Below the pieces are notes generated by a model. The model was not told where the DNA came from, made no database searches, and was given only the letters and a program-made list of their open reading frames with translations. A stretch of 64,000 bases of DNA, taken from the NCBI GenBank assembly GCA_016208965.1, contig JACQXB010000023.1, forward strand, positions 25,904 through 89,903, read 5' to 3'. Positions 4,612-18,167 of the stretch are shown one piece after another; the first letter of the stretch is position 1; the number at the start of each line of letters is the position of its first letter. A program made the translations under genes and the position numbers. This DNA is from Nitrospirota bacterium (lineage in GTDB: Bacteria > Nitrospirota > Thermodesulfovibrionia > UBA6902 > DSMQ01).

Positions 4612-5466
4612 TTACTCAAGCTCCTTTAATGCCCTTTCAAGCTCTGCTGGTGTTGGAGCAATGCCATGATATTCTACCTTTCCTTCAAAAAATGAAACGC
4701 CCTTGCCTTTTATAGTATGTGCAATTATAACAGTAGGTTTGCCTTTAATGTTTTCTGCCTCATTAAGGGCGCTGAGTATTTGTTCCATATTATGTCCGTC
4801 AACCTCCATTACATGCCAACCAAATGCGGCCCATTTGTCATGTAAGGGAGCAATTCTCATCACTTCCTCTACAGGACCATCTATCTGCAATCCGTTGTTG
4901 TCCACAATGCCGCAGATATTATCAAGTCCATAATGTGCCGCTGTCATAGCAGCTTCCCATATCTGCCCCTCCTGTATCTCGCCATCACCCATAAGGCAGT
5001 ATACCCTTGAAGAAATCTTATCAAGCCTAAATCCTAAGGCTATGCCATTAGCAACAGATAACCCCTGGCCTAATGAACCTGTTGATATTTCAACCCCTGG
5101 AAGCGTCCTGCAATATGGATGTCCCTGAAGAGGACTATGGATTTTTCTCAGGGTAGAAAGCAGCTCAACCGAAAAAAAACCTGTCTTTGCAAGAACTGCA
5201 TATAGAAGAGGCGCTACATGTCCTTTTGAGAGGATAAACCTGTCTCTTTCTCTCCACTCAGGGTCTTTAGGATTAAATTTCATCTTCGCAAAGAAAAGCG
5301 CTGCTACCACATCAACGGCTGAGAGCGAGCCACCTGTATGACCTGAGCCTGCTTCTGTCAACATCTTCAGGATGAGGACCCTTATCTCTCGTGCAATGTT
5401 CTTAAGGGTTTCAATATCTGTGATTTTTCCACCTGCTGCAAAGCCCATTTCTTTTGCTCCTCTCAT
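4612..5466 (-). CDS. Transketolase N-terminal (TPP-binding) subunit
   Basis: SGHTGGSLS, RDRFILSKGH, STGSLGQG, GDGE..EG. Confidence 0.93.
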   Translation of the reverse strand: MRGAKEMGFAAGGKITDIETLKNIAREIRVLILKMLTEAGSGHTGGSLSAVDVVAALFFAKMKFNPKDPEWRERDRFILSKGHVAPLLYAVLAKTGFFSVELLSTLRKIHSPLQGHPYCRTLPGVEISTGSLGQGLSVANGIALGFRLDKISSRVYCLMGDGEIQEGQIWEAAMTAAHYGLDNICGIVDNNGLQIDGPVEEVMRIAPLHDKWAAFGWHVMEVDGHNMEQILSALNEAENIKGKPTVIIAHTIKGKGVSFFEGKVEYHGIAPTPAELERALKELE

Positions 5467-5503
5467 TTCTTATTGAACAGACCCTTAATGCTAAAAATAT
5501 TTT

Positions 5504-5849
5504 ACCCTGTTAGAAAACCCCGCCATTTATGGTGGGGATGATAAAAATAAATAATATTCATCTTAATACAAATGCATTAAATTACTTTACATAAAATCTC
5601 CCCCTTACCCCTCTTTGCCAAAGAGGGGGACAAAGTATGGCTTTGCCAAAGAGGGGAATATGAGGAATCTCCCCCTTTGGTATGAACCGCTCTGGTTCAT
5701 ACCTTTGTAAAAGGGGGATGAAGGGGGATTTTTTAATTGTATTCATTTTACCTTTGTAATTTTAGTATGAACCGTTATGGTTCATACTTTACTTAATGCG
5801 TTTGTATTAGAAAGGGCGAAGTTTAAAGTCCTATCCTTTCTAACGGGGT
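5504..5849. repeat. REP-like element with CCCCGTTAGAAA/TTTCTAACGGGG arms, enclosing a MITE
   Basis: Arms at 5504-5516 and 5837-5849; the same arm family is at 6765-6861, 44979-44998 and 60042-60072. Confidence 0.8.
5564..5809. mobile_element. ~245-bp MITE, copy A (TIR ATACAAAYGCATTAA, TA flanks)
   Basis: Terminal inverted repeats; near-identical inverted copy at 21119-21363. Confidence 0.9.
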
Positions 5850-5892
5850 TTACGAATTATAAAACGATAAGATGATTAGAAGCAATAGATTT

Positions 5893-6486
5893 TTAGATTA
5901 CATACTTAACCACTATGAAGCCAAGGATTAATAACGCAAAGAATATAAGTGTGAGAAGGTTGAAATATTTATCTATAAAATCCTTTATCCTCGGACCATA
6001 AAAGTAAATAAATCCTGCAACAAGGAAAAACCTTCCAGCCCGCCCTGCAATTGATGATAGGATAAAAATAGGGAAGTTTATCTTGAACGCACCAGCAGCT
6101 ATGGTAAATACCTTGTATGGTATAGGTGTAAATGCTGCCACGCTAACTACCCATGCATCGTATTTCATATAAAGAGATTGAAGGTATTTATACTTTTCCA
6201 TCGCTGCATATCCATAAAATTCAAGAATAGGCATTCCGACCATATCCATAAATCCAAAGCCTATACCATATCCAATCACTCCTCCAATTACAGAACCAAC
6301 TGTACAAAAAGTGGCGTACTTAAATGCCTTTTTAGGAATAGAAATAGATAGTGTTATTAAAAGCACATCAGGTGGAACTGGGAAAAAGGATGACTCGGTA
6401 ACAGCAAGTAAAAAAAGTGCAGGCACAGCATAAGGAGTTTCTGCCCAGTGCAATACCCAGTCATAAAGTTTTTTTAGATATTTCAT
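5893..6486 (-). CDS. YqaA/DedA family membrane protein
   Basis: ESSFFPVPPDVLL, FTPIPYKVFTIAAG. Confidence 0.88.
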   Translation of the reverse strand: MKYLKKLYDWVLHWAETPYAVPALFLLAVTESSFFPVPPDVLLITLSISIPKKAFKYATFCTVGSVIGGVIGYGIGFGFMDMVGMPILEFYGYAAMEKYKYLQSLYMKYDAWVVSVAAFTPIPYKVFTIAAGAFKINFPIFILSSIAGRAGRFFLVAGFIYFYGPRIKDFIDKYFNLLTLIFFALLILGFIVVKYVI

Positions 6487-6764
6487 GGCTGTTAAACAAA
6501 GTAGGCGTCCCGATCCCGAAGCGTCGGGACAGGACGCCTACTTTGTTAGGTTAAATATACCTAACGAAACTATCTCAGGGGTGTGGCCGCCAAGCTTAAT
6601 AAAAACACTCCTGAGATAGTTTAAATTTACAAAGTAAAAACACCTTGATTTTCAATCTCGCCACCTTGAGTTATTTTCTCTTCCAGAGCTATAGGTGTAT
6701 CTTAGGAAAGATGCTACACTAAATTATACCAATAACTGTAAGTTTTTGTCTATATAAAATTTTG

Positions 6765-6861
6765 CCCCGTTAGAAAGAACGTCCCGCCTTTTAGGCGGGG
6801 TAAAAAAATATAAATAGCGAGACCCGCAGCAAATTGCAATGGGTCGAGCTTTCTAACGGGG
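6765..6861. repeat. REP-like element (CCCCGTTAGAAA arms) with internal hairpins
   Basis: CCCCGTTAGAAA...TTTCTAACGGGG, with internal CCCGCCTTTTAGGCGGG. Confidence 0.75.
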
Positions 6862-6900
6862 GTTACATAAAAATATTTATTTTCAAAGAGTTACCTTTGT

Positions 6901-7881
6901 TTAGTATAACCCAAGTACATTCTTAACCTCTGTCAGGGTCTCTTTGGCTGCCATCTTTGCCTTTTCAGTTCCTGCCCGCGCTATATCTTTTAAAAACTCA
7001 GGTTTCTCCAAAAATCTTTTCCGGGCAGACCATATAGGTTCCAACACTTTAAAAATGTTCTTTATTAATATCTCCTTGCAATCAAGACAGCCAATCGCGG
7101 CTGTGCGGCAGCTGTCAGCAACCTCCTCTTGTTCATTTTTTGTTGAAAATATCTTATGAAGCTGAAATACAGGTGAAAGCTCAGGGTCGCCTTTGTCTGT
7201 ACGTCTTATCCTTTTGGGGTCAGTCATCATGGTTTTTATCTTCTGTTCAACCTCCTTAGGGGCATCACTGAGATAAATACAGTTATTGTAGCTCTTGCTC
7301 ATCTTTCTTCCGTCTAATCCTGTTACTTTTGGAAACTCTGTTAAAAGTCCCTCCGGCTCAGGGAACACATCCCCATAAAGGAAGTTAAATCTCCTGCAAA
7401 TCTCCCTTGTGATTTCCAGATGGGACAACTGGTCAATACCAACAGGAACATAATTAGCCTTATAAATCAGTATGTCTGCTGACTGAAGCACAGGGTAACC
7501 TAAAAATCCATGGGTAGCCAAATCCCTGTCTTTGATCTCTTGCTGTTTTTCCTTATATGTTGGGACGCGCTCAAGCCATCCCAGGGGTGTTATCATTGAA
7601 AGCAGTATATGTAGTTCAGCATGTTCAGGAACCCATGATTGTATAAATATAGTTGACTTTTTAGGGTCCAGTCCAACAGCAAGATAGTTAACAAGCATAT
7701 CTTCAATATTTTCTTTTATCTGAGATGCGTCAGTGTATTGAGTAGTAAGGGCATGCCAATCTGCAATAAAATAATAACACTCGTATTTCTCCTGCAACCT
7801 CACCCAATTTTGTAGTGCCCCCACTAAATTCCCTAAATGAAGCCTCCCGCTGGGCTGCATTCCACTAAGGACCCTTTCCAC
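6901..7881 (-). CDS. trpS: Tryptophan--tRNA ligase
   Basis: SGMQPSG-HLGN, YPVLQSADIL, KMSKS. Confidence 0.97.
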   Translation of the reverse strand: MERVLSGMQPSGRLHLGNLVGALQNWVRLQEKYECYYFIADWHALTTQYTDASQIKENIEDMLVNYLAVGLDPKKSTIFIQSWVPEHAELHILLSMITPLGWLERVPTYKEKQQEIKDRDLATHGFLGYPVLQSADILIYKANYVPVGIDQLSHLEITREICRRFNFLYGDVFPEPEGLLTEFPKVTGLDGRKMSKSYNNCIYLSDAPKEVEQKIKTMMTDPKRIRRTDKGDPELSPVFQLHKIFSTKNEQEEVADSCRTAAIGCLDCKEILIKNIFKVLEPIWSARKRFLEKPEFLKDIARAGTEKAKMAAKETLTEVKNVLGLY

Positions 7882-7882
7882 T

Positions 7883-8509
7883 TTAACCTCCTATTAAAAG
7901 GTACACCAGTAAAATGACAATTGGAAATATTATATAACTTGTCACACCTAAGAATATAAGCCCGAGTAATATGATGAACCCATAAGGCTCAATCCTGCTA
8001 TAAGCAACTGCATGTTTATGTGATAGCAATCCCATTAGTATTTTGCTTCCATCAAGAGGTGGAATAGGAATAAGATTAAATACACCAAGACCAATGTTTA
8101 ATACAACACAGTATCTGAGCATTAAAACCACTGGGATGTAAATCTCATCAGGTAAGGCAAGGGTAGTACGGAGAGTTTTATATAAAAATGCTGATATAAT
8201 TGCAATTATAAAATTTGCCCCTGGCCCTGCAATAGAGACCCACATCATGTCCTGCCTTGGGTTTTTCAGATTATATGGATTAACAGGAACAGGCTTTGCC
8301 CACCCGATCATTCTCGTAAATATAAAAACCATTGTACCTATAGGGTCAAGATGCTTTAATGGGTTTAAAGTTAACCTGCCTGCAAATCTTGCCGTGGGGT
8401 CGCCGAGTTTGTCAGCAACAAAGCCGTGGGCTACCTCGTGAAAGGTAACAGCAATCAAAAGTGGAACCGCTAATAAGGCGGTCTCTCTAATTATTTGGGT
8501 AAAGTCCAA
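7883..8509 (-). CDS. Site-2 protease (M50 family)
   Basis: HEVAH zinc motif, NLIPIPPLDG. Confidence 0.92.
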   Translation of the reverse strand: MDFTQIIRETALLAVPLLIAVTFHEVAHGFVADKLGDPTARFAGRLTLNPLKHLDPIGTMVFIFTRMIGWAKPVPVNPYNLKNPRQDMMWVSIAGPGANFIIAIISAFLYKTLRTTLALPDEIYIPVVLMLRYCVVLNIGLGVFNLIPIPPLDGSKILMGLLSHKHAVAYSRIEPYGFIILLGLIFLGVTSYIIFPIVILLVYLLIGG

Positions 8510-8619
8510 GATATCTCACCTTCTATAGTATTGTTTTTCTCTTCAAGCAGTGGATATAACTATGATACATAATTTATAAAATAAAAAACTACTTCCGTTG
8601 GGCAGTTGTTGCCTTATAT

Positions 8620-8667
8620 CTGGCATCTTGTATCTTGAATCTTGAATCCTGTATCATGAATCTTGCA
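8620..8667. repeat. Degenerate heptamer tandem repeat (TCYTGNA)
   Basis: tctggca tcttgta tcttgaa tcttgaa tcctgta tcatgaa tcttgca. Confidence 0.85.
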
Positions 8668-8675
8668 AGTAAACA

Positions 8676-8747
8676 GCCGATGTAGCTCAGTGGCAGAGCA
8701 ACTGATTCGTAATCAGTAGGTCGAGGGTTCAAGTCCCTCCATCGGCT
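8676..8747 (+). tRNA. tRNA-Thr(CGT)
   Basis: GCCGATG/CATCGGC acceptor stem, CTGAT-TCGTA-ATCAG anticodon arm, GTTCAAG T-loop. Confidence 0.95.
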
Positions 8748-8805
8748 TTTTTTATTTTCAATGACTTACAGCCGATAGAGATTAACTAATACCCCTATCA
8801 CACCA

Positions 8806-8912
8806 CTAATTGTATAGTTTTTGTATAGTTGGTTTCTCACCGTTAATAGTGTTATCCAGTATATCTACCGCTTTAACTTTGTGGCTTGGTGCAAGATGGG
8901 CATATCTGAGGG
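8806..8912 (-). pseudogene. Tyrosine integrase C-terminal remnant 1
   Basis: Translates LRYAHLAPSHKVKAVDILDNTINGEKPTIQKLYN*, containing the catalytic Tyr motif; lies next to the tRNA 3' end. Confidence 0.8.
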
Positions 8913-9039
8913 AACATCTTTATCGCGTGCTTTCAAGGCGAGGCAATCCTGAAATAAGAAGCCTGCTGACACTGCTTCACGCTATGGGACTGGAGCTTAG
9001 TGTAAAGGTGCAGAAACAGGTTTATGCGTAAGTCAGCAG
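8909..9039 (+). pseudogene. Duplicated 3' part of the addiction-module antidote gene
   Basis: 131 bp nearly identical to 12461-12591. Confidence 0.9.
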
Positions 9040-9088
9040 GGAACGGAAGCAAGGATTTTCTCTGTTAATTCTCCTACTTGGCTTTAAG

Positions 9089-9319
9089 CTATGAAAAAGC
9101 GAGTTCAGCTTTAATAGGAAGGGTTTTGATGTCTTTTGCATTTTTAAACCATTTCCTGAAGTTCAGGATTGAAAAACCAACCACTTCGCCACTCACAGGA
9201 TTAACCCTAAGAAAGAAGTCATCTTCTACTTCTTTGGAAATAGCTTTTTCAGGGTCGCCTATCGAAATGTCCAAAACATCCCCTTCGTCATCATATGCCA
9301 TTCTTAATTCTTTTCCCAT
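9089..9319 (-). CDS. DUF2283-like small protein (putative antitoxin)
   Basis: YDDEGDVLDI...VGFSILN; overlaps the upstream gene. Confidence 0.75.
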   Translation of the reverse strand: MGKELRMAYDDEGDVLDISIGDPEKAISKEVEDDFFLRVNPVSGEVVGFSILNFRKWFKNAKDIKTLPIKAELAFS

Positions 9320-9609
9320 AAAGTTTTTCCTTTTTTGATTACATCTGTAATATAACAAGTAAGAATAAAGGAACGCAAACCCTTCTTTGTTGCCACAAGC
9401 ATATATTTCCCATCAAAAATATCACTATAAAACTTGTAGTAAAGCAATACATCTGCGTCTCTTTTGCTTTTCTTAACATAATCTGGCGTGGACAGGACTT
9501 CGTGAATTCTTTCTTTATAAGGCTCTATTTCTATATGCTCCCTAACAATGTGGCGCCATCTTTCATCAGTAAGTTCAATTACGTTACTAAAGATATCTGT
9601 TATCGTCAT
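9304..9609 (-). CDS. Putative RelE/barnase-fold nuclease toxin (DUF4258/PBECR-like)
   Basis: IELTDERWRHIVREH...FILTCY; paired with the DUF2283-like gene. Confidence 0.6.
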   Translation of the reverse strand: MTITDIFSNVIELTDERWRHIVREHIEIEPYKERIHEVLSTPDYVKKSKRDADVLLYYKFYSDIFDGKYMLVATKKGLRSFILTCYITDVIKKGKTLWEKN

Positions 9610-9808
9610 AATCTATTTTTTTATTTTTCATCTTGAAAGCAAAACCATTATAACACATTGTATGTGTTACCAGAATGTGAAATCTCTTTCATGCCATCTG
9701 CGGTATGAACCGCATTGTATCCTGAACCGTCTGGTGCAGGATGGTACATACCCGCGGAGAAGAAAAATGTGGGATGTGGTGCTTCTATTTCTCCTAAATT
9801 AATAACCT

Positions 9809-10207
9809 TTACCTTAATATTTTTACAAAAACAAACAATATTACCAAGCAGATAAGAACATATTTAATGATTTTAATGTCAACATTAATTTTTCTTAGCT
9901 GTTCTAATTGTTGGTACTGAATAATATAGAGTTTATAGCGCTGTTCATCATCAGAACTATCAACAAACGAAAGATGTTCTCTCTCTTCTACTTCTGCTGC
10001 CTTTGTTTCACGTTTCTCGAGATTCTTTAATATCGGGCCGGCAAGAAAAGCAGTAAGTATAACTCCAAGAAATACGCATACGATGATAAGTGGATAACGA
10101 ATAAACGGGGACAGTCCTTTTAGAAAAAGTGAGTCAGCAATATATACTATGCCACCTGTTACTCCAACATATATAAAGGAGACGATTATCGACTGCAAAG
10201 TTTCCAT
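9809..10207 (-). CDS. Hypothetical membrane protein (3 TM)
   Basis: 132-aa ORF with three hydrophobic segments. Confidence 0.55.
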   Translation of the reverse strand: METLQSIIVSFIYVGVTGGIVYIADSLFLKGLSPFIRYPLIIVCVFLGVILTAFLAGPILKNLEKRETKAAEVEEREHLSFVDSSDDEQRYKLYIIQYQQLEQLRKINVDIKIIKYVLICLVILFVFVKILR

Positions 10208-10546
10208 AAGAATTAGATAATAGTTTTATCTTATATAATCTTTATTTCTTTTGCAATGAGAGATAAAAACCTCTCATGGTCTTCTGGCGAAAGACTTTCT
10301 CAAACTGAAACACAGGGTCAAGGAGAAAAAATGCTTCACAGAAACTCCTCAAATGCCTCTCCTCTTTCCTCCTCCAAAGACAGGGAAGCTATCCAAGCCT
10401 CTAATTCAGCCCATGAGGAAACACCATCAGTCGGGCTTAGAAGATTAACTTTCTGTATAAAAAAGTGTAGCTCAACGGAGGGATAGAATCAATTAGAATT
10501 TCACTTAAAAATCTCCCCTCACCCCTTTGTCAAAGAGGGGATTAAA

Positions 10547-10575
10547 ACTGGATTCCCGTTCTCACGGGAATGACA
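10547..10575. repeat. dRS3/RPE-like REP hairpin
   Basis: CTGGATTCCCGTTCTCACGGGAATGACA; related copy at 33152-33178. Confidence 0.65.
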
Positions 10576-10598
10576 GATAAAACGCTATTAATAAGATG

Positions 10599-10883
10599 TT
10601 ACCTTTGTAAAGAAATAACAAGTCGTCTATTAAACACCTTTGCTATCCTGTTAAGGAATTCAAAAGAGGGCATACGCTTATCTTTAGGGCTTTCAACTCT
10701 TGAAATTACTTGCTGTTTAGTCCCTATCTCTTTAGCCAATTGTGCCTGTGTGAGATGATGTGCCTTTCTTAAAAGAGCTATCTCCTGCGCTATCTTCCTT
10801 TTTGCTTCTGCCCTGTCAAAGTAAATCTTAAACTCCTTGTCATTTAAATGTCTCTCAATGTGTTTATCAAGGTCGCTTTTCAT
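10599..10883 (-). CDS. XRE-family HTH protein (HigA-like antitoxin)
   Basis: LTQAQLAKEIGTKQQVISRVE HTH. Confidence 0.85.
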   Translation of the reverse strand: MKSDLDKHIERHLNDKEFKIYFDRAEAKRKIAQEIALLRKAHHLTQAQLAKEIGTKQQVISRVESPKDKRMPSFEFLNRIAKVFNRRLVISLQR

Positions 10884-10884
10884 T

Positions 10885-11259
10885 TCAAACCATTATCTCA
10901 ACCAGTATCTTTTCATACTCAACAACTGGTTTGGTCTTGTGCCTGCCTTCTTTGGTTTTTTCAATCTCTATTAATCCAAGCTCTGAAAGGTAATGGACAT
11001 CGTCTGTAACATTCTTTGCATCTCTGTGTAATATCTTTGCAAGCTTATAGATGGAATCAGGCTTATATTTCCTGATAACCTTCAATATCCTCAATCGTTC
11101 ATCGGTAATAAATTTCCTCATTGTCTTTAATGAGTCAAAAGAGATAACCGATTTAGGTTCTACTTTCTTGCCCTTTGCTACTGCTTTCATGGCATCCTTT
11201 GCCTCTCTAATAAATCCATCTTCACTCTGGATGTCCAATCTTACATTTTTAATCTTCAT
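10885..11259 (-). CDS. Winged-helix DNA-binding protein (HVO_A0114-like, putative antitoxin)
   Basis: PDSIYKLAKILHRDAKNVTDDVHYLSELGLI. Confidence 0.75.
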   Translation of the reverse strand: MKIKNVRLDIQSEDGFIREAKDAMKAVAKGKKVEPKSVISFDSLKTMRKFITDERLRILKVIRKYKPDSIYKLAKILHRDAKNVTDDVHYLSELGLIEIEKTKEGRHKTKPVVEYEKILVEIMV

Positions 11260-11533
11260 GGTTTACCCTCCTTGCATCGTTAAAAAAATCCTCAAAGAGT
11301 TTATCAATGCCCTTAAAGTTATAGGGATAAATATTGTCTTTATAATGCCTGTGGTCTCCTTTTCTTTCTGAATTGTCATAGCCTATTATCCTTTTACCCT
11401 CTCTAATATAAACAAGAGAATATTTAAACCCATGTGGCTTGTCTGGTGTTTCAGTAACTTGCCATGCCTTGATTTCAATAATGTCTCCATTGGGATAAAC
11501 CCTCTTACGCATTATGAAAGGCTTTGCCTTCAT
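11249..11533 (-). CDS. DUF6516/TumE-like putative toxin (true start probably 11533)
   Basis: PHGFKYSL...GYDNSERKGDHRH; the longer ORF-track call reads in from an integrase remnant. Confidence 0.75.
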   Translation of the reverse strand: MKAKPFIMRKRVYPNGDIIEIKAWQVTETPDKPHGFKYSLVYIREGKRIIGYDNSERKGDHRHYKDNIYPYNFKGIDKLFEDFFNDARRVNHED

Positions 11534-11600
11534 ATAGGTTATTATATACCATGTATCAGAATAAAGCAATAAAAAAGGCTTGGAATAACCTTGCCCTAAA

Positions 11601-11717
11601 CTGTATAGTTTTTGTATAGTTGGCTTCTCATTCAAAGTGCTGTCCAGTATATCTACTGCCTTAACCTTATGAGATGGTGCAAGGTGGGAATATCTGAGGG
11701 TCATAGTGAGGGTCTTA
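11601..11717 (-). pseudogene. Tyrosine integrase C-terminal remnant 2
   Basis: KTLTMTLRYSHLAPSHKVKAVDILD; homologous to 8806-8912. Confidence 0.8.
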
Positions 11718-11899
11718 TCAAGAAATGAGACTTTTGACCAATTTCATTCTTTGAGAGTAAAAGGGCACTTCTTTTTATAAACCTCCAGAAGCAAAAAACG
11801 GTCGTTGCCTCTAACTTGGTCGTTTTCGGATAAGAAAAATGCGGGGATGTATTGTCTCTATTAATCCCTATATACTAAGACGAGAATCTTTAAAACCTC

Positions 11900-11929
11900 T
11901 TGACAATAATGTAGCTTATAAGCTACTAT
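11900..11929 (+). promoter_or_regulatory. sigma70 promoter with palindromic operator of the TA operon
   Basis: TTGACA-N18-TACTAT overlapping the perfect palindrome GTAGCTTATAAGCTAC (11911-11926). Confidence 0.75.
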
Positions 11930-11936
11930 CAACATA

Positions 11937-12266
11937 ATGGAAACATGCCCTTTCACGTTTGAGTATTATATTACTGAAACTGGCAAGATTCCATTTAAAG
12001 AGTGGCTTGAAAGCCTCAAAGATATACATGCCCGGGCTAAAATTCGAATTGCACTTGACCGCATAAGGCTGGGAAACTTTGGACATGCTAAGTCTATTGG
12101 TGAGGGCGTTAATGAATTGAAAATTGATTGCGGTCCCGGATACCGCGTATATTATGCTTTTACTGGAAAGACAATTGTTTTGCTTCTGCTTGGCGGAGAT
12201 AAGGCATCACAGAGTAAAGATATTGCTCGTGCAAAGGAGTACAGGAGAGTATTTAAACGGAGGTGA
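11937..12266 (+). CDS. RelE/ParE-family addiction module killer protein
   Basis: PFKEWLESL, GNFGHAKSIGEGVNELKID.GPGYRVYY, LLLGGDK. Confidence 0.9.
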   Translation: METCPFTFEYYITETGKIPFKEWLESLKDIHARAKIRIALDRIRLGNFGHAKSIGEGVNELKIDCGPGYRVYYAFTGKTIVLLLLGGDKASQSKDIARAKEYRRVFKRR

Positions 12267-12271
12267 TATAA

Positions 12272-12583
12272 ATGGCAATAAAACCAAAAAAGAGTTATCA
12301 GGAAGACCTTATTGAAAGTCTGAAAAATCCGAAAGAGGCTGCCGCATATTTGAATGCTGCAATTGAAGAAGGAGACCGTGAATTATTATTGCTCGCGCTC
12401 AGAAATATTGCCGAAGCTCAAGGCGGAATATCAGCAATAGCAAAAAAGGCTCATCTTAACAGGGAACACCTTTATCGTGCTCTTTCAAGGCGAGGCAATC
12501 CTGAAATAAGAAGCCTGCTGACACTGCTTCACGCTATGGGACTGGAGCTTAGTGTAAAGGTGCAGAAACAGGTTTATGCATAA
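12272..12583 (+). CDS. Addiction module antidote protein (HTH)
   Basis: EAAAYLNAAIEEGD, LNREHLYRALS.RGNP. Confidence 0.9.
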   Translation: MAIKPKKSYQEDLIESLKNPKEAAAYLNAAIEEGDRELLLLALRNIAEAQGGISAIAKKAHLNREHLYRALSRRGNPEIRSLLTLLHAMGLELSVKVQKQVYA

Positions 12584-12639
12584 GTCAGCAGATGTAGGCA
12601 CTCTTTATCAAAAATAGTCCCTACTTTTTACTATGTATG

Positions 12640-12788
12640 GTGATAACAAGAAAACTTGTTATCACCCTTTTTTGCGTGGATAACAAGTTAGGAATTATAA
12701 TCACATCCATGAAAAATTGTCAAATTCGTTGCTTAATGCTATCGCTTGTAGTATGATAACAAGAAACCAGTTAATAATATTGTTAGGC
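12640..12788 (+). other. attI-like integron recombination site
   Basis: GATAACAAG at 12642, 12679 and 12755 (inverted copy at 12656), upstream of core site GTTAGGC (12782-12788). Confidence 0.5.
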
Positions 12789-12815
12789 TGTAAATAAAAC
12801 GAAAGGAGACCATCA

Positions 12816-13310
12816 ATGTTCAGATACAAGCCGAGACAAAAGAATTTATTGTATCTGTTCTTAGCTTTTATTTTAGCACTGGGCGTTGGCGGATGTTCTG
12901 TAAAGCTTATTACAGACCATGATGCGAACACATTTGAGGAAATTTTAAAGGTTTCAAAAAAAGTTGATTGATTTTACGGTAACTTACTTGAGACACCAGA
13001 AATCGACAGGAAATATTCGAAATACGCCGAACAATACGTTGAGATAGAAACGGACATTAGATCGCTCATAACACGCAATCAAGCTAGGCCACTAAATGAA
13101 GAATCAATAAAGATTTCAGAAACAATTCTTAAACTTTGGGTTAAATACAAGCAAAAATATCAAAAAGAAGATAGCTACTCAAATGGTACAGCAAAACTTG
13201 ATAGAAATAGATTCGTTAGACTATTCAATGCGGCGGCTGCCGCAGAAGAAGTAAAAAAACTAGAACCAGATGATCGTGATGATAAAAAAGATAGTAAAGA
13301 AGTTAAGTAA
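12816..13310 (+). pseudogene. Lipoprotein of unknown function with an in-frame TGA at 12969-12971
   Basis: AAGGAG RBS, signal peptide with lipobox LGVGG-C; the frame stays open for 112 codons after the TGA; missed by the ORF track. Confidence 0.8.
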
Positions 13311-13344
13311 TTATGAATGAATCGACTTGCAGGAGGTTCCATAA

Positions 13345-13668
13345 ATGGGTTTTGATATTGATAAAACACTAAATGAAATGGCAAAAGCTATTGGAGCAAT
13401 TTTTACCGGTGAGTGGCCCAAAGTCAAAGACTGCGTAGAAAATGTGCTCAAGGATGAGAGGAAAGCATTGGCAGATATTGCGAAAGCTCGATTGTCAGAC
13501 AATATAAATGATGATGAATTAAAATCTCAGCTTGAAGACGAACAGGCAACATTGGAAGCCGCTCTCTTGGTTTGCGGACTAAAAGCAAAAGCAATGGTTC
13601 AGAAGGCAATAAATGCTGCCCTAAAAGTTTTTGAGGATGCTGTTAAAACGGCTATAAAGGCAATGTAA
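13345..13668 (+). CDS. Hypothetical all-alpha protein
   Basis: AGGAGG RBS, 107 aa. Confidence 0.8.
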   Translation: MGFDIDKTLNEMAKAIGAIFTGEWPKVKDCVENVLKDERKALADIAKARLSDNINDDELKSQLEDEQATLEAALLVCGLKAKAMVQKAINAALKVFEDAVKTAIKAM

Positions 13669-13730
13669 CATTAGAAGGTCTACATGGCTTTAGACAAACT
13701 GTAGCATTAAATTGAAAGGAGGTATATAAA

Positions 13731-14057
13731 ATGGCAATCTTTTTTAAATCAACACCAATAATTAACACAGCCAAAGATTTATTTGAAGAAGCTCTAAAAA
13801 CGGATCCTGCCACAATTTCTCAGCCATCTGTTGAGGCAGCTAAAAAGGCAGAGGAAATTGCTCGTTCGGCGAGGGGTTCTTTTTCTTGGGGGCGACTTGC
13901 TGTAGCTATAGTATTACTACTTGGGATATTGATTGCTGCTATCTATACCGCTCAAAACGATAAGTTAGTAGATTTGTATAAGTTGCTACTACATTCTTTT
14001 GAGTTGATCTTAGGAGCGGTTGTAGGTCTTCTCACTGGAGAAGCAATCAGCCGTTAA
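13731..14057 (+). CDS. Hypothetical membrane protein (2 C-terminal TM)
   Basis: AAGGAGG RBS, 108 aa. Confidence 0.8.
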   Translation: MAIFFKSTPIINTAKDLFEEALKTDPATISQPSVEAAKKAEEIARSARGSFSWGRLAVAIVLLLGILIAAIYTAQNDKLVDLYKLLLHSFELILGAVVGLLTGEAISR

Positions 14058-14093
14058 AAAAAAGATAAGGACAGCGTCATGGAATGTATGAGT

Positions 14094-14153
14094 GCCTAAC
14101 AAATCACTCAAGACCGACGCGCAAAATCGCGCGTCTTAGTTCGGCCGTTAAAA
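14094..14153 (+). other. attC site (60 bp)
   Basis: R'' GCCTAAC, 5-bp spacer, L'' ACTCAAG, stem GACGCGC/GCGCGTC, L' CTTAGT, 6-bp spacer, R' GTTAAAA. Confidence 0.85.
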
Positions 14154-14317
14154 TGAATTTATTCAGGAAACTGTTCACTCCCAATAAAACAACGTGCAAA
14201 TTGGGCAAGAAATCTATTATAACTCTTTCCTAAATGTGGGTTGATAATTCTGATATTAAGAATCGGGCGGTAAATATTCCCACTGCATAATGTAAAGGGG
14301 CAATTCTTGATGGGCAT
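14147..14317 (-). pseudogene. Probable retropepsin-like aspartyl protease remnant (internally deleted, truncated at attC)
   Basis: MPIKNCPF..YRPILNIRIINPH joined out of frame to DFLPNLHVVLLGVNSFLNKFIL; TAATG coupling to the DUF5678-like gene. Confidence 0.55.
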
Positions 14318-14511
14318 TAGTAAATGTGAACCCTGTCTTTTTCAGGGACATAGAAGATTACAGGGTCTTTTGCTCCTTTTTTCTTTGCTTCCTCAAAGAC
14401 CTTTGATGGGTATTTGCCAAAGCTTAGGACTCTTTTATCTTTGAATGATTTTGTGGCTACATATTGACCGCTGTATTTATCCCCATCTTTTACTAAAATG
14501 TTTCGTGGCAT
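14317..14511 (-). CDS. DUF5678-like small protein
   Basis: KYSGQYVA...VFEEAKKKG..DPVIFYVP; GGAGG RBS before the ATG at 14511. Confidence 0.75.
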   Translation of the reverse strand: MPRNILVKDGDKYSGQYVATKSFKDKRVLSFGKYPSKVFEEAKKKGAKDPVIFYVPEKDRVHIY

Positions 14512-14564
14512 ATAACCCTCCGATCTTAATGCTATTATATCAGAAAATATATAAAATGAGACTT

Positions 14565-15581
14565 TCAATCCTTTAGTCTATTGGTAAAAACCTTTATCTC
14601 TTCTAATTTCTTGTAAGCCTTTCCTGAATCTATTACATTGGATGCCTTGCCTACGGCATCAGAGAAGTTTTCTGCCACATCTCCTGATATAAGGGCTGCT
14701 GCTGTATTGAGTAAGACTATATCCCTCTTGGCTCCCTTCTTGCCATTTAATATATCAAGGGTTATCTTTGCGTTCTCCTGAGCAACACCTCCAATTAAAT
14801 CTTCTTTTTTAGCCCTTGTAAGACCTAAATCCTCAGGTGTTATGTAGTAAGTATTAACTCTGCCATTTTTTAGCTCTGATATCTTTGTTCTTCCTGTAAT
14901 TGTTATCTCATCAAGTCCGTCCTCGCCATGAACAACAAAAGCGCGTGCTGTACCAAGGTTATTAAGTGCCTCTGCTATTACCTCTGTGAGATCACCCCTG
15001 AAAACACCAAGCACCTGTCTTTTAGCCCCCGCAGGATTTGTAAGAGGCCCAAGCATATTAAATATAGTCCTTATCCCCATCTCTTTTCTTGGGCCTATGG
15101 CATACTTCATTGCTGGATGAAATAGTGGAGCAAATAAGAATCCAAATCCTGTAGCATTAAGGCATTCTTCAACCTCTTCGGGCCTGAGGTCTATTCTTAC
15201 ACCTAATGCCTCAAGCACATCTGCGCTTCCTGATTGACTTGATACAGAACGGTTTCCGTGCTTGGCTACCGGGACTCCGCAGGCAGCTACAATTATGGCT
15301 GAGGTAGTAGATATATTGAATGTATGAGCCATATCGCCGCCAGTCCCACAGGTATCAACAGTGCGGTCAGGCGCCTTTATTTTTACTGCCTTTTCACGCA
15401 TAACCCTTGCTGCGACTGTAATCTCCTCAATGGTCTCGCCTTTTATTCTTATGGCGGTAAGAAAAGACGCAATCTGGGCATCTGTGGCACTGCCTTCCAT
15501 TATGTCACGCATTGCCCCAGCCATCTGGTCCTGAGAGAGATTATTGTTGTGCACTAATAAATTAATTGCCTCTTTAATCAT
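14565..15581 (-). CDS. trpD: Anthranilate phosphoribosyltransferase
   Basis: DTCGTGGD, FNIST, KHGNRSVSS.SGSAD. Confidence 0.96.
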   Translation of the reverse strand: MIKEAINLLVHNNNLSQDQMAGAMRDIMEGSATDAQIASFLTAIRIKGETIEEITVAARVMREKAVKIKAPDRTVDTCGTGGDMAHTFNISTTSAIIVAACGVPVAKHGNRSVSSQSGSADVLEALGVRIDLRPEEVEECLNATGFGFLFAPLFHPAMKYAIGPRKEMGIRTIFNMLGPLTNPAGAKRQVLGVFRGDLTEVIAEALNNLGTARAFVVHGEDGLDEITITGRTKISELKNGRVNTYYITPEDLGLTRAKKEDLIGGVAQENAKITLDILNGKKGAKRDIVLLNTAAALISGDVAENFSDAVGKASNVIDSGKAYKKLEEIKVFTNRLKD

Positions 15582-15763
15582 TAGCTTTTGTCATATTATA
15601 GCATCTTCCAGTATTTATTCATGCCAAAATTTTAGCGTCTGTCTTATAATAGTCAGATACTTTGCTGGGGAAGATTGAGAGGAGGGAGAACGATTGGATT
15701 AACTCCGTCATAAATCTCCTGCTTAACCTGCAGAAGACCGTGGAAGAAGAGAGCATGGACGCA

Positions 15764-15915
15764 CAACCTGAGTCCCTGCTTGAGGCGATAGACGCCTTCC
15801 CCGGCGCCGTAGTTATCGTTACCCATAGCGAAATGATACTTCATGCCATCGCGACAAGGCTCATTGTCTTTGACAACGGGAAGGCAACACTTTTTGAAGG
15901 CACGTATACAGAACA
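15764..15915 (+). pseudogene. Fragment of an ABC-F family ATPase
   Basis: ESLLEAIDAFPGAVVIVTHSE...FEGTY (H-loop region only). Confidence 0.6.
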
Positions 15916-15989
15916 ACGTAAAAGATTTTATCAATATAAATTTCCCTCCCTTTGCCAAAGAGAAGGAAATAAATGCGTGCTTTACAAAA

Positions 15990-16232
15990 TTAAGAAACTT
16001 TTTGATAACGCCGGGAGCCTTTAGCTATTTTGCCTTCCCTTTTCATCCTGCTTATCAAACTCTCTACAGTTTCATCTTTAAAAAGCTCTCTCCTAAGTTT
16101 TGTATAATCTCCTTCGCCTTTTTCATACTGCAGGAAGAATTTTAAGGCGTCCGCAACTCCAAGATGTTCTTTTAACACTTTCCATCCGGCTTTTCTCAAC
16201 TCTACAGGTGTTAATTCTAAAGCTTTCCTCAT
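15990..16232 (-). CDS. Putative antitoxin partner of the PIN toxin
   Basis: LKEHLGVADALKFFLQYEKGEGDYT; coupled to the PIN gene. Confidence 0.7.
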   Translation of the reverse strand: MRKALELTPVELRKAGWKVLKEHLGVADALKFFLQYEKGEGDYTKLRRELFKDETVESLISRMKREGKIAKGSRRYQKVS

Positions 16233-16678
16233 TACTTGAAAACCTCCTCTACTACAAATCTTATTAAGGGTCTAACCTTAACTTTCAACATTTTCTCTAT
16301 GGTTTTGCATTTCTTTACCAGAATATCATCACATGTCACAAAAAAGTCAGCTTTTGCATTTTCTGCACATGCAATATGTAGTGCATCAATACCCATAATA
16401 CCAAACTTCTCAATCTCTTTTGCCCTTTTTTCTAAATCCTCATCATAGTCAACATATGTTGAAGATAATTCCAATAAATCACTGATTATGTCTTTACGGT
16501 CTGTATAAGGATTATGGCTGTTTTCATCTTCAAGTGTAAAAGAACTTACGATAGTGATTTCTTTCTTGATAGCTTTTGACAGCAGCAATATGAATTCCAA
16601 TGTCTCTATAACAATTCTTGCCTGCCGCTGCTCATCAAAAGGTCTGTTGTATACACAGAGGTCTAAATATAATTTCAC
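16232..16678 (-). CDS. PIN-domain (VapC-like) toxin
   Basis: YLDLCVYNRPFD, DALHIACAE, FFVTCDD. Confidence 0.88.
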   Translation of the reverse strand: MKLYLDLCVYNRPFDEQRQARIVIETLEFILLLSKAIKKEITIVSSFTLEDENSHNPYTDRKDIISDLLELSSTYVDYDEDLEKRAKEIEKFGIMGIDALHIACAENAKADFFVTCDDILVKKCKTIEKMLKVKVRPLIRFVVEEVFK

Positions 16679-16779
16679 TTTTCAGCTGCCTTTTACAATT
16701 GAAATCTCAATGTATCTTACTATAAAAGGGTGCATACTCCTGCTCTTTTATAAGATTAGCAGCATAAGGATAAAATTTA

Positions 16780-16835
16780 ATATAGGGCTGTCCATGACAA
16801 ATATTGGGGTCTATTTCTATAGGTTCATTTATTAA
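16780..16835 (-). pseudogene. DUF433-like fragment
   Basis: IEIDPNICHGQPYIK motif only. Confidence 0.45.
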
Positions 16836-16945
16836 ATTTACCCTCTTCTCGTAAACGATAAGAAATTTGATTTTATTCTTGCACATTCTTTTATAATCTG
16901 TCAAACGATAAAAAGGGCTTGTACCTCAGGTTGCTAAACTCGCTA

Positions 16946-17710
16946 CTAAGGTAAGAGTTTAACTTGTTTGAAAACTTTTTTAAAAGAGGAAATCAAGTTT
17001 TTTGCTCGGTTATAATACATGGCATGGGAAGGCTTATCTCTGACATTTGATATATCCAGAATTGTCGTGTTTATTCCAATAGGGCAATTTCCACCTAAGA
17101 GAAAAAGATCAACGTCATCCTTAAACTCTTTGATACCTTCAATTGGGTCAATAATAGGTTTATGACCGGATCTATTAGCAGAGGTATTTGCAATCGGAAA
17201 ATCAGCTTCTTCAACAAGAACTTCGGTTACTTTATCCATGCAAACTATAAGTACAGAATCAGAATTAGAAGTCACAAAATCAGGAATAGCATAATTTCCT
17301 TCTCGATTTTTTTTCTTCTTTAAGACAAAACTGAGATAACCAGGCCAAAATTTCTGTGGTAATATTTCAAATTTCTTATCAATTACTGCCCACTCTTTCA
17401 AACGGTTATATTTAGCAAGCACGGTCAATGCTTTGTCTCGTGACCTATTTTTGACGCGGTATAATCTCTCCACGGCTTTCTTATCCGTTGCTTTGACAGC
17501 TATTCCATATGTGAGTTCAGAGTAATATAAAACGAGACCACCATTGCCCAACACTTTTATAGCTTGTTGCACATTTTCTTTTACTGTTGGCCCAAGCAAA
17601 ATTTTATTAATTAATTGAGGATCATCACGCTTTAAATCTTCCATAAATTTCAGCAATTCTTCTGTTGGTGGATACAAAAGTTCCTTTTTCCCTCTCATGG
17701 TATTAGTCAT
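16946..17710 (-). CDS. Divergent YrdC/Sua5/TsaC-family protein (C-terminus possibly truncated)
   Basis: K.R (KNRSRDK), FWPG and TSANRSG motifs; the PTETVYG motif is replaced by YSELTYG. Confidence 0.8.
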   Translation of the reverse strand: MTNTMRGKKELLYPPTEELLKFMEDLKRDDPQLINKILLGPTVKENVQQAIKVLGNGGLVLYYSELTYGIAVKATDKKAVERLYRVKNRSRDKALTVLAKYNRLKEWAVIDKKFEILPQKFWPGYLSFVLKKKKNREGNYAIPDFVTSNSDSVLIVCMDKVTEVLVEEADFPIANTSANRSGHKPIIDPIEGIKEFKDDVDLFLLGGNCPIGINTTILDISNVRDKPSHAMYYNRAKNLISSFKKVFKQVKLLP

Positions 17711-17759
17711 TAATTCCTCTCCAAAAGAAAATATATTTAATTACCAAAACTAATATGTC

Positions 17760-18167
17760 CTAATCCAAATACTTCCGTGGATCGGTGACTTTCCCTTCAA
17801 TTGCAGATACTGCTACAGAGGCCGGAGAGGCCAAAATTACTTTTGCATTCAGGCCTCCCATTCTTCCTAAAAAATTTCTATTATTTGAACTGATAAGTGT
17901 GTCATTATCTGCTACTAAGCCACCGTTTATCCCCGAACATAATCCACATGCAGGGTGTATGATAATTGCTCCAGCCTCTGCAAGAGTCGCTATAATACCT
18001 TTTTGAATTGCCTCAAGATATACTTTTCTTGACGCTGGTGTTACAATAAATTCTACACGATCATTGACTTTTCGATTTTTTAATATAGAGGCGGCAACCT
18101 GCAAATCTTCTAAACGGCCATTAGTACACGAGCCAAGAAACGCTTTTCGTATTTCTTTGCCTTCTAC
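17760..18167 (-). pseudogene. C-terminal fragment of an aconitase/LeuC/homoaconitase large subunit
   Basis: FLGSCTNGRLEDL, PACGLCSG, NRNFLGRMG, ASPA; N-terminal part is missing. Confidence 0.85.

Follow-up and report, generated by a model that had tools for sequence, protein, structure and literature searches.

A solitary integron cassette in a Nitrospirota genome holds a decaying lipoprotein–partner gene pair and a third gene with its own history

Results

The cassette and its borders

In a 64,000-nucleotide stretch of contig JACQXB010000023.1 from a Nitrospirota bacterium (assembly GCA_016208965.1), hereafter the window, three co-oriented genes lie together on a single integron gene cassette. 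They are called g1, g2 and g3 in the order in which they are read, and they encode a lipoprotein, a small helical protein and a protein with two transmembrane (TM) segments. The source genome, whose groundwater origin agrees with the labels of the matching sequencing runs, comprises 1.67 Mb in 50 contigs and is 87.8% complete. The features on which the argument depends are as follows.

12636-12785, plus strand: conserved 150-nt platform, ending at the recombination junction
12782-12788, plus strand: GTTAGGC core site, with the 5′ junction between G12782 and T12783
12783-14147, plus strand: integron gene cassette of 1365 bp holding g1, g2 and g3; solitary, resembling a cluster of attC sites lacking an integron integrase (CALIN)
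12816-13310, plus strand: g1, lipoprotein gene of 164 codons, ribosome-binding site (RBS) GGAG, lipobox LGVGGC (Cys27); pseudogene
13345-13668, plus strand: g2, 107 aa, RBS AGGAGG, five helices; intact
13731-14057, plus strand: g3, 108 aa, RBS AGGAGG, two-TM protein; intact
14094-14153, plus strand: attC, with R″ at 14094-14100, R′ at 14147-14153, an imperfect L-box stem and an extra-helical C16 on the top strand

The attC site starts 36 nt past the g3 stop codon, and its R″ and R′ boxes read GCCTAAC and GTTAAAA, the consensus for these boxes being RYYYAAC and GTTRRRY. Two integron integrases scoring above the TIGR02249 cut-off are present in the genome (C35:1159-2091 and C17:161003-161929), both at contig ends. 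The window site was aligned with the attC adjoining intI on contig C35, which forms the end of the first cassette reading outward from that integrase, and with one site on contig C10; mean column identity is 75%, and box order and spacing are the same in all three. With a covariance model built from these three sites (R1), the score of the window site is 72.3 bits (E 4.6e-16), and two C10 attC sites outside the training set were recovered at 41 and 34 bits; over 310 kb the model returned no further site below E 1. Across the five sites 95% of the cells of the L-box helix are paired and six of eight pairs show compensatory changes, a count drawn from only five sequences in an alignment fitted to the covariance model, and the outer R-box pairs fail in two to three of the five, matching the expectation for hybrid R′ sites. 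A screen by regular expression and folding found the window site and one C10 site only, two ad hoc attC scanners having been dropped as too unspecific or as missing the true site. Rfam searches of positions 5000-18000 matched tRNA-Thr alone, with no attC family among the matches.

The cassette start, TTAGGC at 12783-12788, is the exact complement of the cassette's own R″, GCCTAA(C) at 14094-14100. GTTAGGC occurs just twice on the plus strand of the window, and by our own arithmetic the probability of its chance occurrence in the 232-nt spacer is about 0.01. Because the attC alignment, the covariance model, the compensatory pairs, the R″-complementary start and the alternative continuations at 12785-12787 described below all agree, 12783-14147 is one true integron gene cassette that carries all three genes. 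It is a solitary one and lies outside a complete integron, since no second attC is found in the window at E <= 10, including the intervals between g1, g2 and g3, and the nearest integrase (C17:161003-161929) is some 121 kb away. No integrase and no attC array adjoins the cassette, as would an array beside intI and attI, and blastn comparison of both spacers with the genome revealed no repeats.

The platform that precedes the cassette is 81% identical to a sequence in a relative from another genus (G004:C196; L041 4975-5123). There the platform copy has other genes on both sides and no such cassette, and the similarity ends at the same base. The last 35 nt of the platform (12751-12785) recur in groundwater sequencing runs X1, X2, X3 and X5, and in the four assemblies this end is joined at 12785-12787 to four other continuations, two of which start with an RBS and ATG and one of which equals the G004 sequence. 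Judged from these sequences, the 5′ junction of the cassette is a recombination hot spot. Under model R1 the platform is not an attC; it may be an attI-like site or a secondary site. The sequence just past the attC (14154-14170) reads TGAATTTAT..., and one of the X5 continuations also starts TGAATTTAT (consensus agreement 0.67); the shared start may represent an empty site in a related strain.

The platform contains a 12-bp palindrome followed by a T-run (12639-12672), four GATAACAAG motifs and, on the minus strand from 12723 to 12694, a perfect leftward sigma-70 consensus (TTGACA-18-TATAAT, 12/12). This promoter runs antisense to an antidote gene; in G004 the equivalent promoter faces, past the same palindrome, a minus-strand gene that by eye is antitoxin-like with a helix-turn-helix (HTH). 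By eye there is also a weak rightward TTGCTT-17-TATGAT (12729-12757), which is kept in G004 although it scores under the promoter-scan threshold.

A lipoprotein gene interrupted by a recent stop codon

The predicted N-terminus of g1 has basic residues, a hydrophobic stretch and then the lipobox LGVGGC. Cys27 is kept in at least 90% of 74 sequences, always behind a hydrophobic stretch, and the Bacteroidota copies are no exception. With this N-terminal signal and lipobox cysteine, g1 carries the sequence marks of a bacterial lipoprotein. At codon 52, however, the 164-codon frame has an in-frame TGA (12969-12971), so that translation table 11 yields an open reading frame (ORF) of only 51 aa.

The residue at this position is Q, R, K, L, E, M or I in 23 homologues. 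A 320-nt contig from run X5, which belongs to a separate study and covers 12857-13176, reads C at 12969 and restores CGA (Arg); this allele is about 97% identical to the window (10 differences) at a low depth of 3.4, and the three runs of the study from which the genome probably comes keep T at 12969. From X5 there are contigs over portions of g1 and over the 3′ terminus of g3, leaving approximately 13268-13907 uncovered and uninformative on presence there. TGA is an ordinary stop codon in this genome, terminating 13 of the 40 window ORFs of at least 200 aa. Because homologues have other residues here, a sister allele reads CGA and TGA is an ordinary stop, the stop in g1 is a mutation, and the same facts rule out selenocysteine or another recoding at this TGA. 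Thus g1 is a recent pseudogene that arose by a change of CGA to TGA, with the rest of its frame intact. The module is decaying in the source genome, since g1 is knocked out while g2 and g3 are intact, and it cannot work as designed. Codon 115 of g1 (13158-13160) encodes Tyr in place of a His that is invariant in all 74 other aligned family members; the X5 allele has the same residue as the window, so that the Tyr change is older than the nonsense mutation.

The predicted g1 fold consists of a signal helix, a conserved C-x-VKLVADYD segment and an up-down four-helix bundle (pLDDT 90.0, from the 74-sequence alignment). The mature protein is basic, with an isoelectric point (pI) of 7.8. Homologues form 78 clusters with 48-79% identity. 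No match to g1 was found at the thresholds used in Pfam, NCBIfam, PHROGs or PADLOC, and none in plasmid and phage collections. Fold searches (Foldseek against PDB, and VIA wide) gave generic helical bundles only, the Psb27, McpS and FbpC rows lying within the non-specific range; no HEPN-like Rx4-6H motif is seen by eye. In ESM Atlas both g1 and g3 fall in unnamed clusters only. One 80-kb viral contig (L030) encodes at 5004-5318 a leaderless 105-aa fragment of the g1 bundle that is 47% identical to a homologue and, by eye, closest to the Chitinophagaceae copies. The fragment is flanked by a virion structural gene (phrog_14543) on one side and by unknown genes on the other, a tail gene (phrog_5302) lies upstream of it, and there is no g2 on that contig.

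A leaderless partner

The product of g2 is acidic (pI 5.0) and has no hydrophobic segment, TM helix or signal peptide; its predicted fold has five helices (pLDDT 90.4). A word-indexed search found 16 homologue clusters; by exhaustive profile search the family numbers 673 representative clusters at E <= 0.001, of which 262 reach E <= 1e-10. Nearly all family members are 100-110 aa long, and g2, like g3, has the full length usual in its family. No match to g2 was obtained in Pfam, NCBIfam or PHROGs, and PADLOC at E <= 0.1 gave only LeoBC (E 0.038, 11 bits). Foldseek against PDB returned generic helical bundles and designed proteins only, PDB sequence profiles for the three families yielded nothing meaningful, and neither g2 nor g3 is matched in viral contigs.

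A few members depart from the simple form. In the 339-aa protein P0116 a g2 domain is joined through a linker rich in Lys and Arg to a cysteine-protease region of papain-like type (3ois, E 3e-4), and P0122 and P0125 contain the start of the same type of extension. In P0170 a Sec-type leader replaces helix 1, the sole leader among 150 g2 representatives. Of 177 aligned sequences, 45 have both Cys30 and Cys77, 129 have neither and three have only one, with hydrophobic pairs where both are absent. This pattern fits a disulfide or a tight contact, although relatedness inflates such counts. The cysteine pair and the P0170 leader are hints that g2 may act outside the cytoplasm. Passage of g2 as a hitch-hiker on the Tat pathway was dropped as a general route, twin arginines being found in only some g1 leaders.

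The conserved unit is g1-g2

Fourteen genome loci were found with the g1 profile, in Burkholderiales, Nitrosospira, Chromatiales, Ectothiorhodospiraceae, Thioalkalispiraceae, Desulfobacteraceae and Chitinophagaceae; in every one g2 starts 13-85 nt past g1, and g3 is absent. Whole-genome searches add L043, L044 and L046, each with the pair, which L044 keeps at just 34% (g1) and 28% (g2) identity. The two genes are adjacent in all 17 of these other loci, which represent Pseudomonadota, Desulfobacterota and Bacteroidota and make up the neighbourhood sample; L047 was left out of the count because a contig end cuts it. In contrast, g3 is found neither in the flanks of the 17 loci nor, by six-frame search, in the 17 genomes, and none of seven metagenome loci with a g3 homologue has g1 or g2. 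Given these counts in both directions, the conserved unit is g1-g2, and the history of g3 is a separate one.

The pair is sparse. It was represented by g1 in three of 64 genomes of the window's order and three of 401 of another order, the latter sample supplying only two new loci. An integrase above the cut-off is present in eight of the 17 other module genomes and in the source genome as well; a figure of 17% of bacterial genomes is reported elsewhere (10.64898/2026.03.17.712381). The pair is a rare, horizontally scattered, cross-phylum two-gene module. In three Chitinophagaceae species it nonetheless occupies one stable chromosomal context. At one locus from a metagenome-assembled genome of that family (L018 497-5965), genes for SIR2_2 and a HerA-like protein lie directly upstream of the pair, and downstream are a 71-aa ORF and an ATP-grasp gene of MvdD/RimK type, which may make up a set for peptide modification. 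At L013 the 149 nt after g2 (4844-4992) have a branched fold and are an attC candidate; model R1 gives no match there.

The third gene

Hydrophobic segments of g3 span residues 56-74 and 85-103, and the second contains a conserved motif, LLHSFELILGA..GLLTGEA. A word-indexed search found 17 homologue clusters; Pfam, NCBIfam, PHROGs and PADLOC gave no match at the thresholds used. A distant homologue in L029 is followed immediately by a weak attC-like site (E 4.7). It is probable that g3 is a passenger gene, joined to the others through loss of an intervening attC or by chance capture. Between g2 and g3, positions 13677-13696 (GGTCTAC..TTTAGAC) were picked out by eye as a candidate collapsed attC; its core is unlike that of the cassette's own site, and the covariance model does not support it.

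An earlier note on this DNA, made from the sequence alone, had described one cassette in a toxin–antitoxin (TA)-rich island with three co-oriented, well-initiated genes of no recognised family. That description is borne out: the cassette has its attC (14094-14153) and a matching start (12783-12788), each gene has a strong RBS (GGAG, AGGAGG, AGGAGG), the 107-aa product is predicted to be helical and the 108-aa product has two TM segments, none of the three has a credible match in the four family libraries, and the neighbouring TA families listed below were identified by library scan. The link to the envelope that it drew also stands, given a lipoprotein in g1 and two TM segments in g3. Of its 164-codon lipoprotein the lipobox and the frame hold, but the gene is broken at codon 52.

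A predicted heterodimer

Mature g1 (28-152) and g2 were modelled together with an ipSAE of 0.89, the best of three controls reaching 0.00. Among solved complexes 116 of 157 attain this mark, and among mismatched pairs 2 of 215 do so, a calibration that is rough here because the alignments were our own. Agreement between runs extends to at least 96% of contacts, and partner pLDDT is at least 91. In the predicted interface residues 28-32 and helices 3-4 of g1 meet residues 37-93 of g2. Conserved residues there are E96, S97, I100, K110, L128, R135, A143 and K147 of g1 and A41, I45, A48, I54, D65, E66, A72, L75, K82 and Q86 of g2. A second conserved polar patch, on g1 helices 1-2 (F53, Y54, G55, E59, R65, Y67, R82, S83, R87, N88, R91, N94), is left free in the predicted complex. 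The modelling supports a 1:1 heterodimer of g1 and g2.

Genes that follow the pair in relatives

The position after g2 is occupied differently from one locus to another.

L009, directly after g2, co-oriented, leaderless: PG_binding_1 and a weak M15_4
L015, directly after g2, co-oriented, leaderless: Phage_lysozyme / pesticin-like, weak
L046, directly after g2, co-oriented, leaderless: Muramidase PF11860 (E 2e-62) and PG_binding_1
L017, after g2: 717-aa patatin-like protein
L019, after g2: 127-aa three-TM protein
L013, 640 nt from g2: Amidase_2
L012: contig ends 14 nt past g2
Remaining ten loci, after g2: nothing related

The recurrence of non-homologous cell-wall and lipid hydrolases after g2 suggests that the pair may belong to a modular weapon or lysis device.

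The surrounding island

The island that holds the cassette lies between tRNA-Thr (8675-8748) and trpD. A family-library scan identified TA-type genes around the cassette: Gp49/HI1420, TumE/HVO_A0114, HTH_3, a PBECR nuclease and PIN. The tRNA gene, tRNA-Thr(CGT), is the start of the island. Two minus-strand copies of about 70 nt, 81% alike, lie at 8843-8912 and 11631-11700; each encodes ...LRY(S/A)HLAPSHKVKAVDILD, which we take to be the C-terminus of a tyrosine recombinase, and no full-length gene with this end is found in the genome. The 3′ end of an HI1420-type antidote gene is also present twice, at 8909-9039 and 12461-12591, with 96% identity. The recombinase-end copies and the duplicated antidote-gene end suggest that the island may have held tandem copies that have since been partly deleted.

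Elsewhere in the genome the first cassettes beside the integrases look TA-like by eye, presumably BrnT/BrnA-like on C35 and Phd-like on C17. Contig C10 (L031 8973-13698) has at least three attC sites (8973-9038, 10783-10848, 13640-13698) with no integrase in view and is a CALIN. In the window, a 61-nt near-perfect palindrome at 6491-6551, with ends ACCTAAC ... GTTTAAC, lies between a VTT-domain gene and trpS. Its DNA fold is about -21 to -22 kcal/mol; the ends are attC-like and the hairpin is too perfect, and the attC covariance model gives no match to it. Palindromes pairing a C-run with a G-run (CCCCTCTTTGCCAAAGAGGGG type) occur at 5605-5660, 10517-10544 and 15942-15969. A 114-aa ORF at 17760-18104 matches only the final 107 positions of the aconitase profile (PF00330, 357-463 of 463) and is either a gene fragment or a small-subunit-like ORF.

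Discussion

The interpretation that we favour, with a probability of roughly one half, is that the locus is a stranded integron cassette containing a decaying conflict-type pair, g1-g2, and an unrelated passenger, g3. The cassette sits far from any integrase, at a conserved junction within the TA-rich island that follows tRNA-Thr, and g3 would be an independent unit that shares the cassette only here. The earlier note had proposed that the three genes act together, and that part fails: the three do not occur together elsewhere, with g3 in none of the 17 module loci or genomes and g1 or g2 at none of the seven g3 loci. Of the comparisons it had called for, complex prediction gave a confident g1-g2 complex and Foldseek only generic helical bundles.

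Among known elements this one is close to integron cassettes whose genes have no assigned function (gcu), multi-gene and fused cassettes included, and to CALINs. It consists of a promoterless gene set ending in an attC with R″, L″, L′ and R′ boxes and an extra-helical base, its start complements its own R″, and in type its attC matches those found beside the genome's IntI. Proteins encoded on cassettes are enriched in signal peptides (16.1% versus 6.8%; PMC10661359). As points of difference, the present cassette adjoins no integrase or array, lies behind a 150-nt platform that a relative has without the cassette, and carries three genes that belong to two unrelated evolutionary groupings, the pair and g3.

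What the pair does is a separate matter. A toxin/immunity-type envelope pair is its most likely function, though on its own we hold this somewhat less likely than not. The proposal is based on the adjacency and predicted binding of the two proteins, the split between a basic and an acidic partner, the mobility of the pair, its TA neighbours, the decay of one partner only and the enzymes that adjoin it. It is envisaged that g1 would be exported and lipid-anchored, and that the acidic, leaderless g2 would clasp g1 helices 3-4 and the mature N-terminal segment. Two polarities may be considered. In the first, g1 would be a lipoprotein toxin and g2 its leaderless neutraliser, an assignment that fits the gene order, the charges and the presence of an intact g2 beside a broken g1, and whose layout is that of SitA/SitI. 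In the second, g2 would be a leaderless effector or delivery domain and g1 a periplasmic trap, which fits the cysteine pair of g2, the P0170 leader and the g2 fusions. The slot after g2 would, in some lineages, hold interchangeable cargo that has no leader and degrades the envelope. Peptidoglycan hydrolases from three unrelated families are found there, as is a patatin lipase, and in one case a papain-like protease is fused to g2. Both the compartment of g2 and the conflict role are inferred.

One organisational parallel is the SitA-SitI system of myxobacteria. As described (PMC5562445, PMC8546572), a lipobox lipoprotein gene is followed there by one for a small leaderless partner that neutralises by binding, and the cassettes are horizontally mobile and polymorphic; the lipobox toxin precedes its immunity gene and exerts its toxicity in the cytoplasm (PMC5562445). 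SitA differs in being large (tagged SitA1 has a predicted mass of 62.6 kDa), with an N-terminal escort region and a C-terminal nuclease toxin, and in being delivered by TraA/B outer-membrane exchange, its gene often being preceded by sitB (PMC5562445). The g1-g2 pair has a lipobox and a downstream partner that is predicted to bind, but in the 135-aa, four-helix bundle of g1 no toxin domain is recognised, and its sequence is unlike that of SitA.

A second parallel may be drawn. Effectors of the type VI secretion system (T6SS) that act in the periplasm are small and leaderless and are encoded beside an exported immunity protein that binds them; the toxin repertoire includes peptidoglycan hydrolases, lipases and pore formers. 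TssC (PF05943), however, is found in only five of the 17 module genomes and is absent from the 87.8% complete source genome, no Hcp, VgrG or PAAR gene lies within the locus flanks, and g1-g2 is far more conserved than such pairs.

A number of points weigh against the conflict interpretation. No toxin, immunity or enzyme family was recognised in g1 or g2 by library and PDB profile searches, and both proteins are unusually conserved for conflict genes, g1 being 50-79% identical across classes. An envelope-active gene is missing after g2 in ten of the 17 loci, and the stable Chitinophagaceae context looks like that of an accessory housekeeping function. The compartments clash, g1 being exported while 149 of 150 g2 representatives are leaderless; no export route for g2 is known. 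A TssC gene is present in just five of the 17 module genomes and not in the source genome. Neither polarity is free of difficulty: if g1 were the immunity protein, its loss with g2 retained should harm the host, and if it were the toxin, no entry domain is evident in its bundle of 135 aa. Covariation of the g2 cysteines may come partly from shared ancestry, and the score of the predicted complex expresses model confidence and is not a measurement. Finally, the way in which g3 came to be in the cassette is conjectural, no attC remnant having been detected between g2 and g3.

Among the alternatives, the one that survives best, unlikely as we judge it to be, is a non-conflict envelope complex in which the g1 bundle binds a small ligand or regulates cell-wall enzymes and g2 is an obligate subunit or assembly factor. 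High conservation, the polar surface on g1 helices 1-2 outside the predicted g2 interface, the constant synteny in three Chitinophagaceae and the proximity of the pair to cell-wall enzymes would all be accommodated. The best structural neighbours of g1 include periplasmic four-helix sensors, McpS (Z 12.3), NarQ (Z 11.7) and TorS (Z 10.2), all within the range that is non-specific for helical bundles. A complex of this kind is harder to reconcile with so rare and patchy a distribution (3/64 and 3/401 genomes), with carriage on an integron cassette here and over-representation in integron-bearing genomes, with the dispensability implied by the pseudogene, and with the missing leader of g2.

It is less likely again that the module is a phage-derived lysis or type-10-like accessory, with g1 a spanin-like outer-membrane lipoprotein, g2 a periplasmic or regulatory partner, and the third gene an endolysin in relatives and, in the window, g3 as a putative holin-like protein. 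As described (PMC13284979, PMC10847048), lysis cassettes and the type 10 secretion system (T10SS) similarly combine an outer-membrane lipoprotein, interchangeable leaderless endolysin-type enzymes and small TM proteins, the T10SS being built from sets of holin, peptidoglycan hydrolase and spanin derived from phage lytic cassettes (PMC13284979). Leaderless endolysin-type enzymes of three unrelated families do lie directly after g2 in L009, L015 and L046, and the gene after g2 encodes a small TM protein in L019 and, as g3, in the window. On the other hand, none of the three genes has a PHROG match and none shows holin or spanin homology in Pfam or PHROG; g2 has no TM helix to anchor it and is no i-spanin, and g1, a compact bundle of 135 aa, is not short and extended as an o-spanin would be. 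No endolysin is encoded on the window cassette, most copies have no hydrolase, and ten of the 17 loci have neither a hydrolase nor a holin-like gene. The pair is also missing from phage collections: g1 is unmatched in phage and plasmid collections and g2 in viral contigs, and the single viral match is the leaderless g1 fragment among tail genes, without g2.

A classical type II TA pair that stabilises the cassette or island, with g2 holding the toxin g1 in the cytoplasm until degradation of g2 frees g1 to the envelope, is very improbable. Its setting would be apt: TA modules make up much of the island around the cassette, each of the two integrases is adjoined by a first cassette that is TA-like by eye (the names being presumptive), the two proteins are predicted to bind tightly, and a toxin-first order with toxin-first decay matches a broken g1 and an intact g2. 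TA genes are also abundant in cassette pools (PMC10661359). On the other hand, no DNA-binding domain is present in g2, neither protein belongs to a known TA family in Pfam or NCBIfam, and the cysteine pair and P0170 leader point outside the cytoplasm. The lipoprotein signal of g1 is conserved, and it is difficult to see how Sec could export a bundle that has already folded around g2.

Weakest as a rival, and improbable, is the idea that all three genes form one anti-phage or abortive-infection cassette, with g1 an envelope sensor and g2 and g3 agents of membrane damage. In its favour, patatin, small TM proteins and a protease are reminiscent of the effectors used by defence systems, the cassette has TA modules around it and SIR2_2-HerA lies directly upstream of the pair in L018. 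But that is one locus of 17, g3 and the pair do not travel together, PADLOC gives nothing but the weak LeoBC row, no domain for sensing nucleotides, DNA or phage is present, the pair keeps a stable context in Chitinophagaceae and g1 is broken here. Integron cassettes are reported to encode phage defence (10.1101/2024.07.02.601719); the earlier note's anti-phage suggestion nonetheless finds no specific support at this locus.

The toxin/immunity reading of the pair may be extended, in a form that we consider unlikely, to an undescribed envelope conflict or lysis system of which g1-g2 would be the core and the genes after g2 the interchangeable cargo. In such a system g2 would enter the periplasm by a route other than Sec, Tat or T6SS and dock on g1, and it would bring or control a muramidase, lysozyme, M15 peptidase, patatin, fused protease or small TM proteins such as g3. 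If this is true, the logic of delivery and neutralisation would be new, in that the lipoprotein would recognise a conserved carrier domain and not a variable toxin.

Whatever its role, the pair belongs to families that are undescribed, to judge from the empty family libraries, the PDB searches and the unnamed Atlas clusters. The g2 family alone comprises 673 representative clusters without a name, a solved structure or an annotated domain. Always adjacent, spread across phyla and predicted with high confidence to form a heterodimer, g1-g2 is among the cleaner uncharacterised obligate pairs. A leaderless protein that is predicted to bind an exported lipoprotein raises the question of how proteins without a signal reach the envelope. 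For integron biology, the locus documents a solitary, decaying multi-gene cassette, and because its parts have separate histories it cautions that a multi-gene cassette is not necessarily one system.

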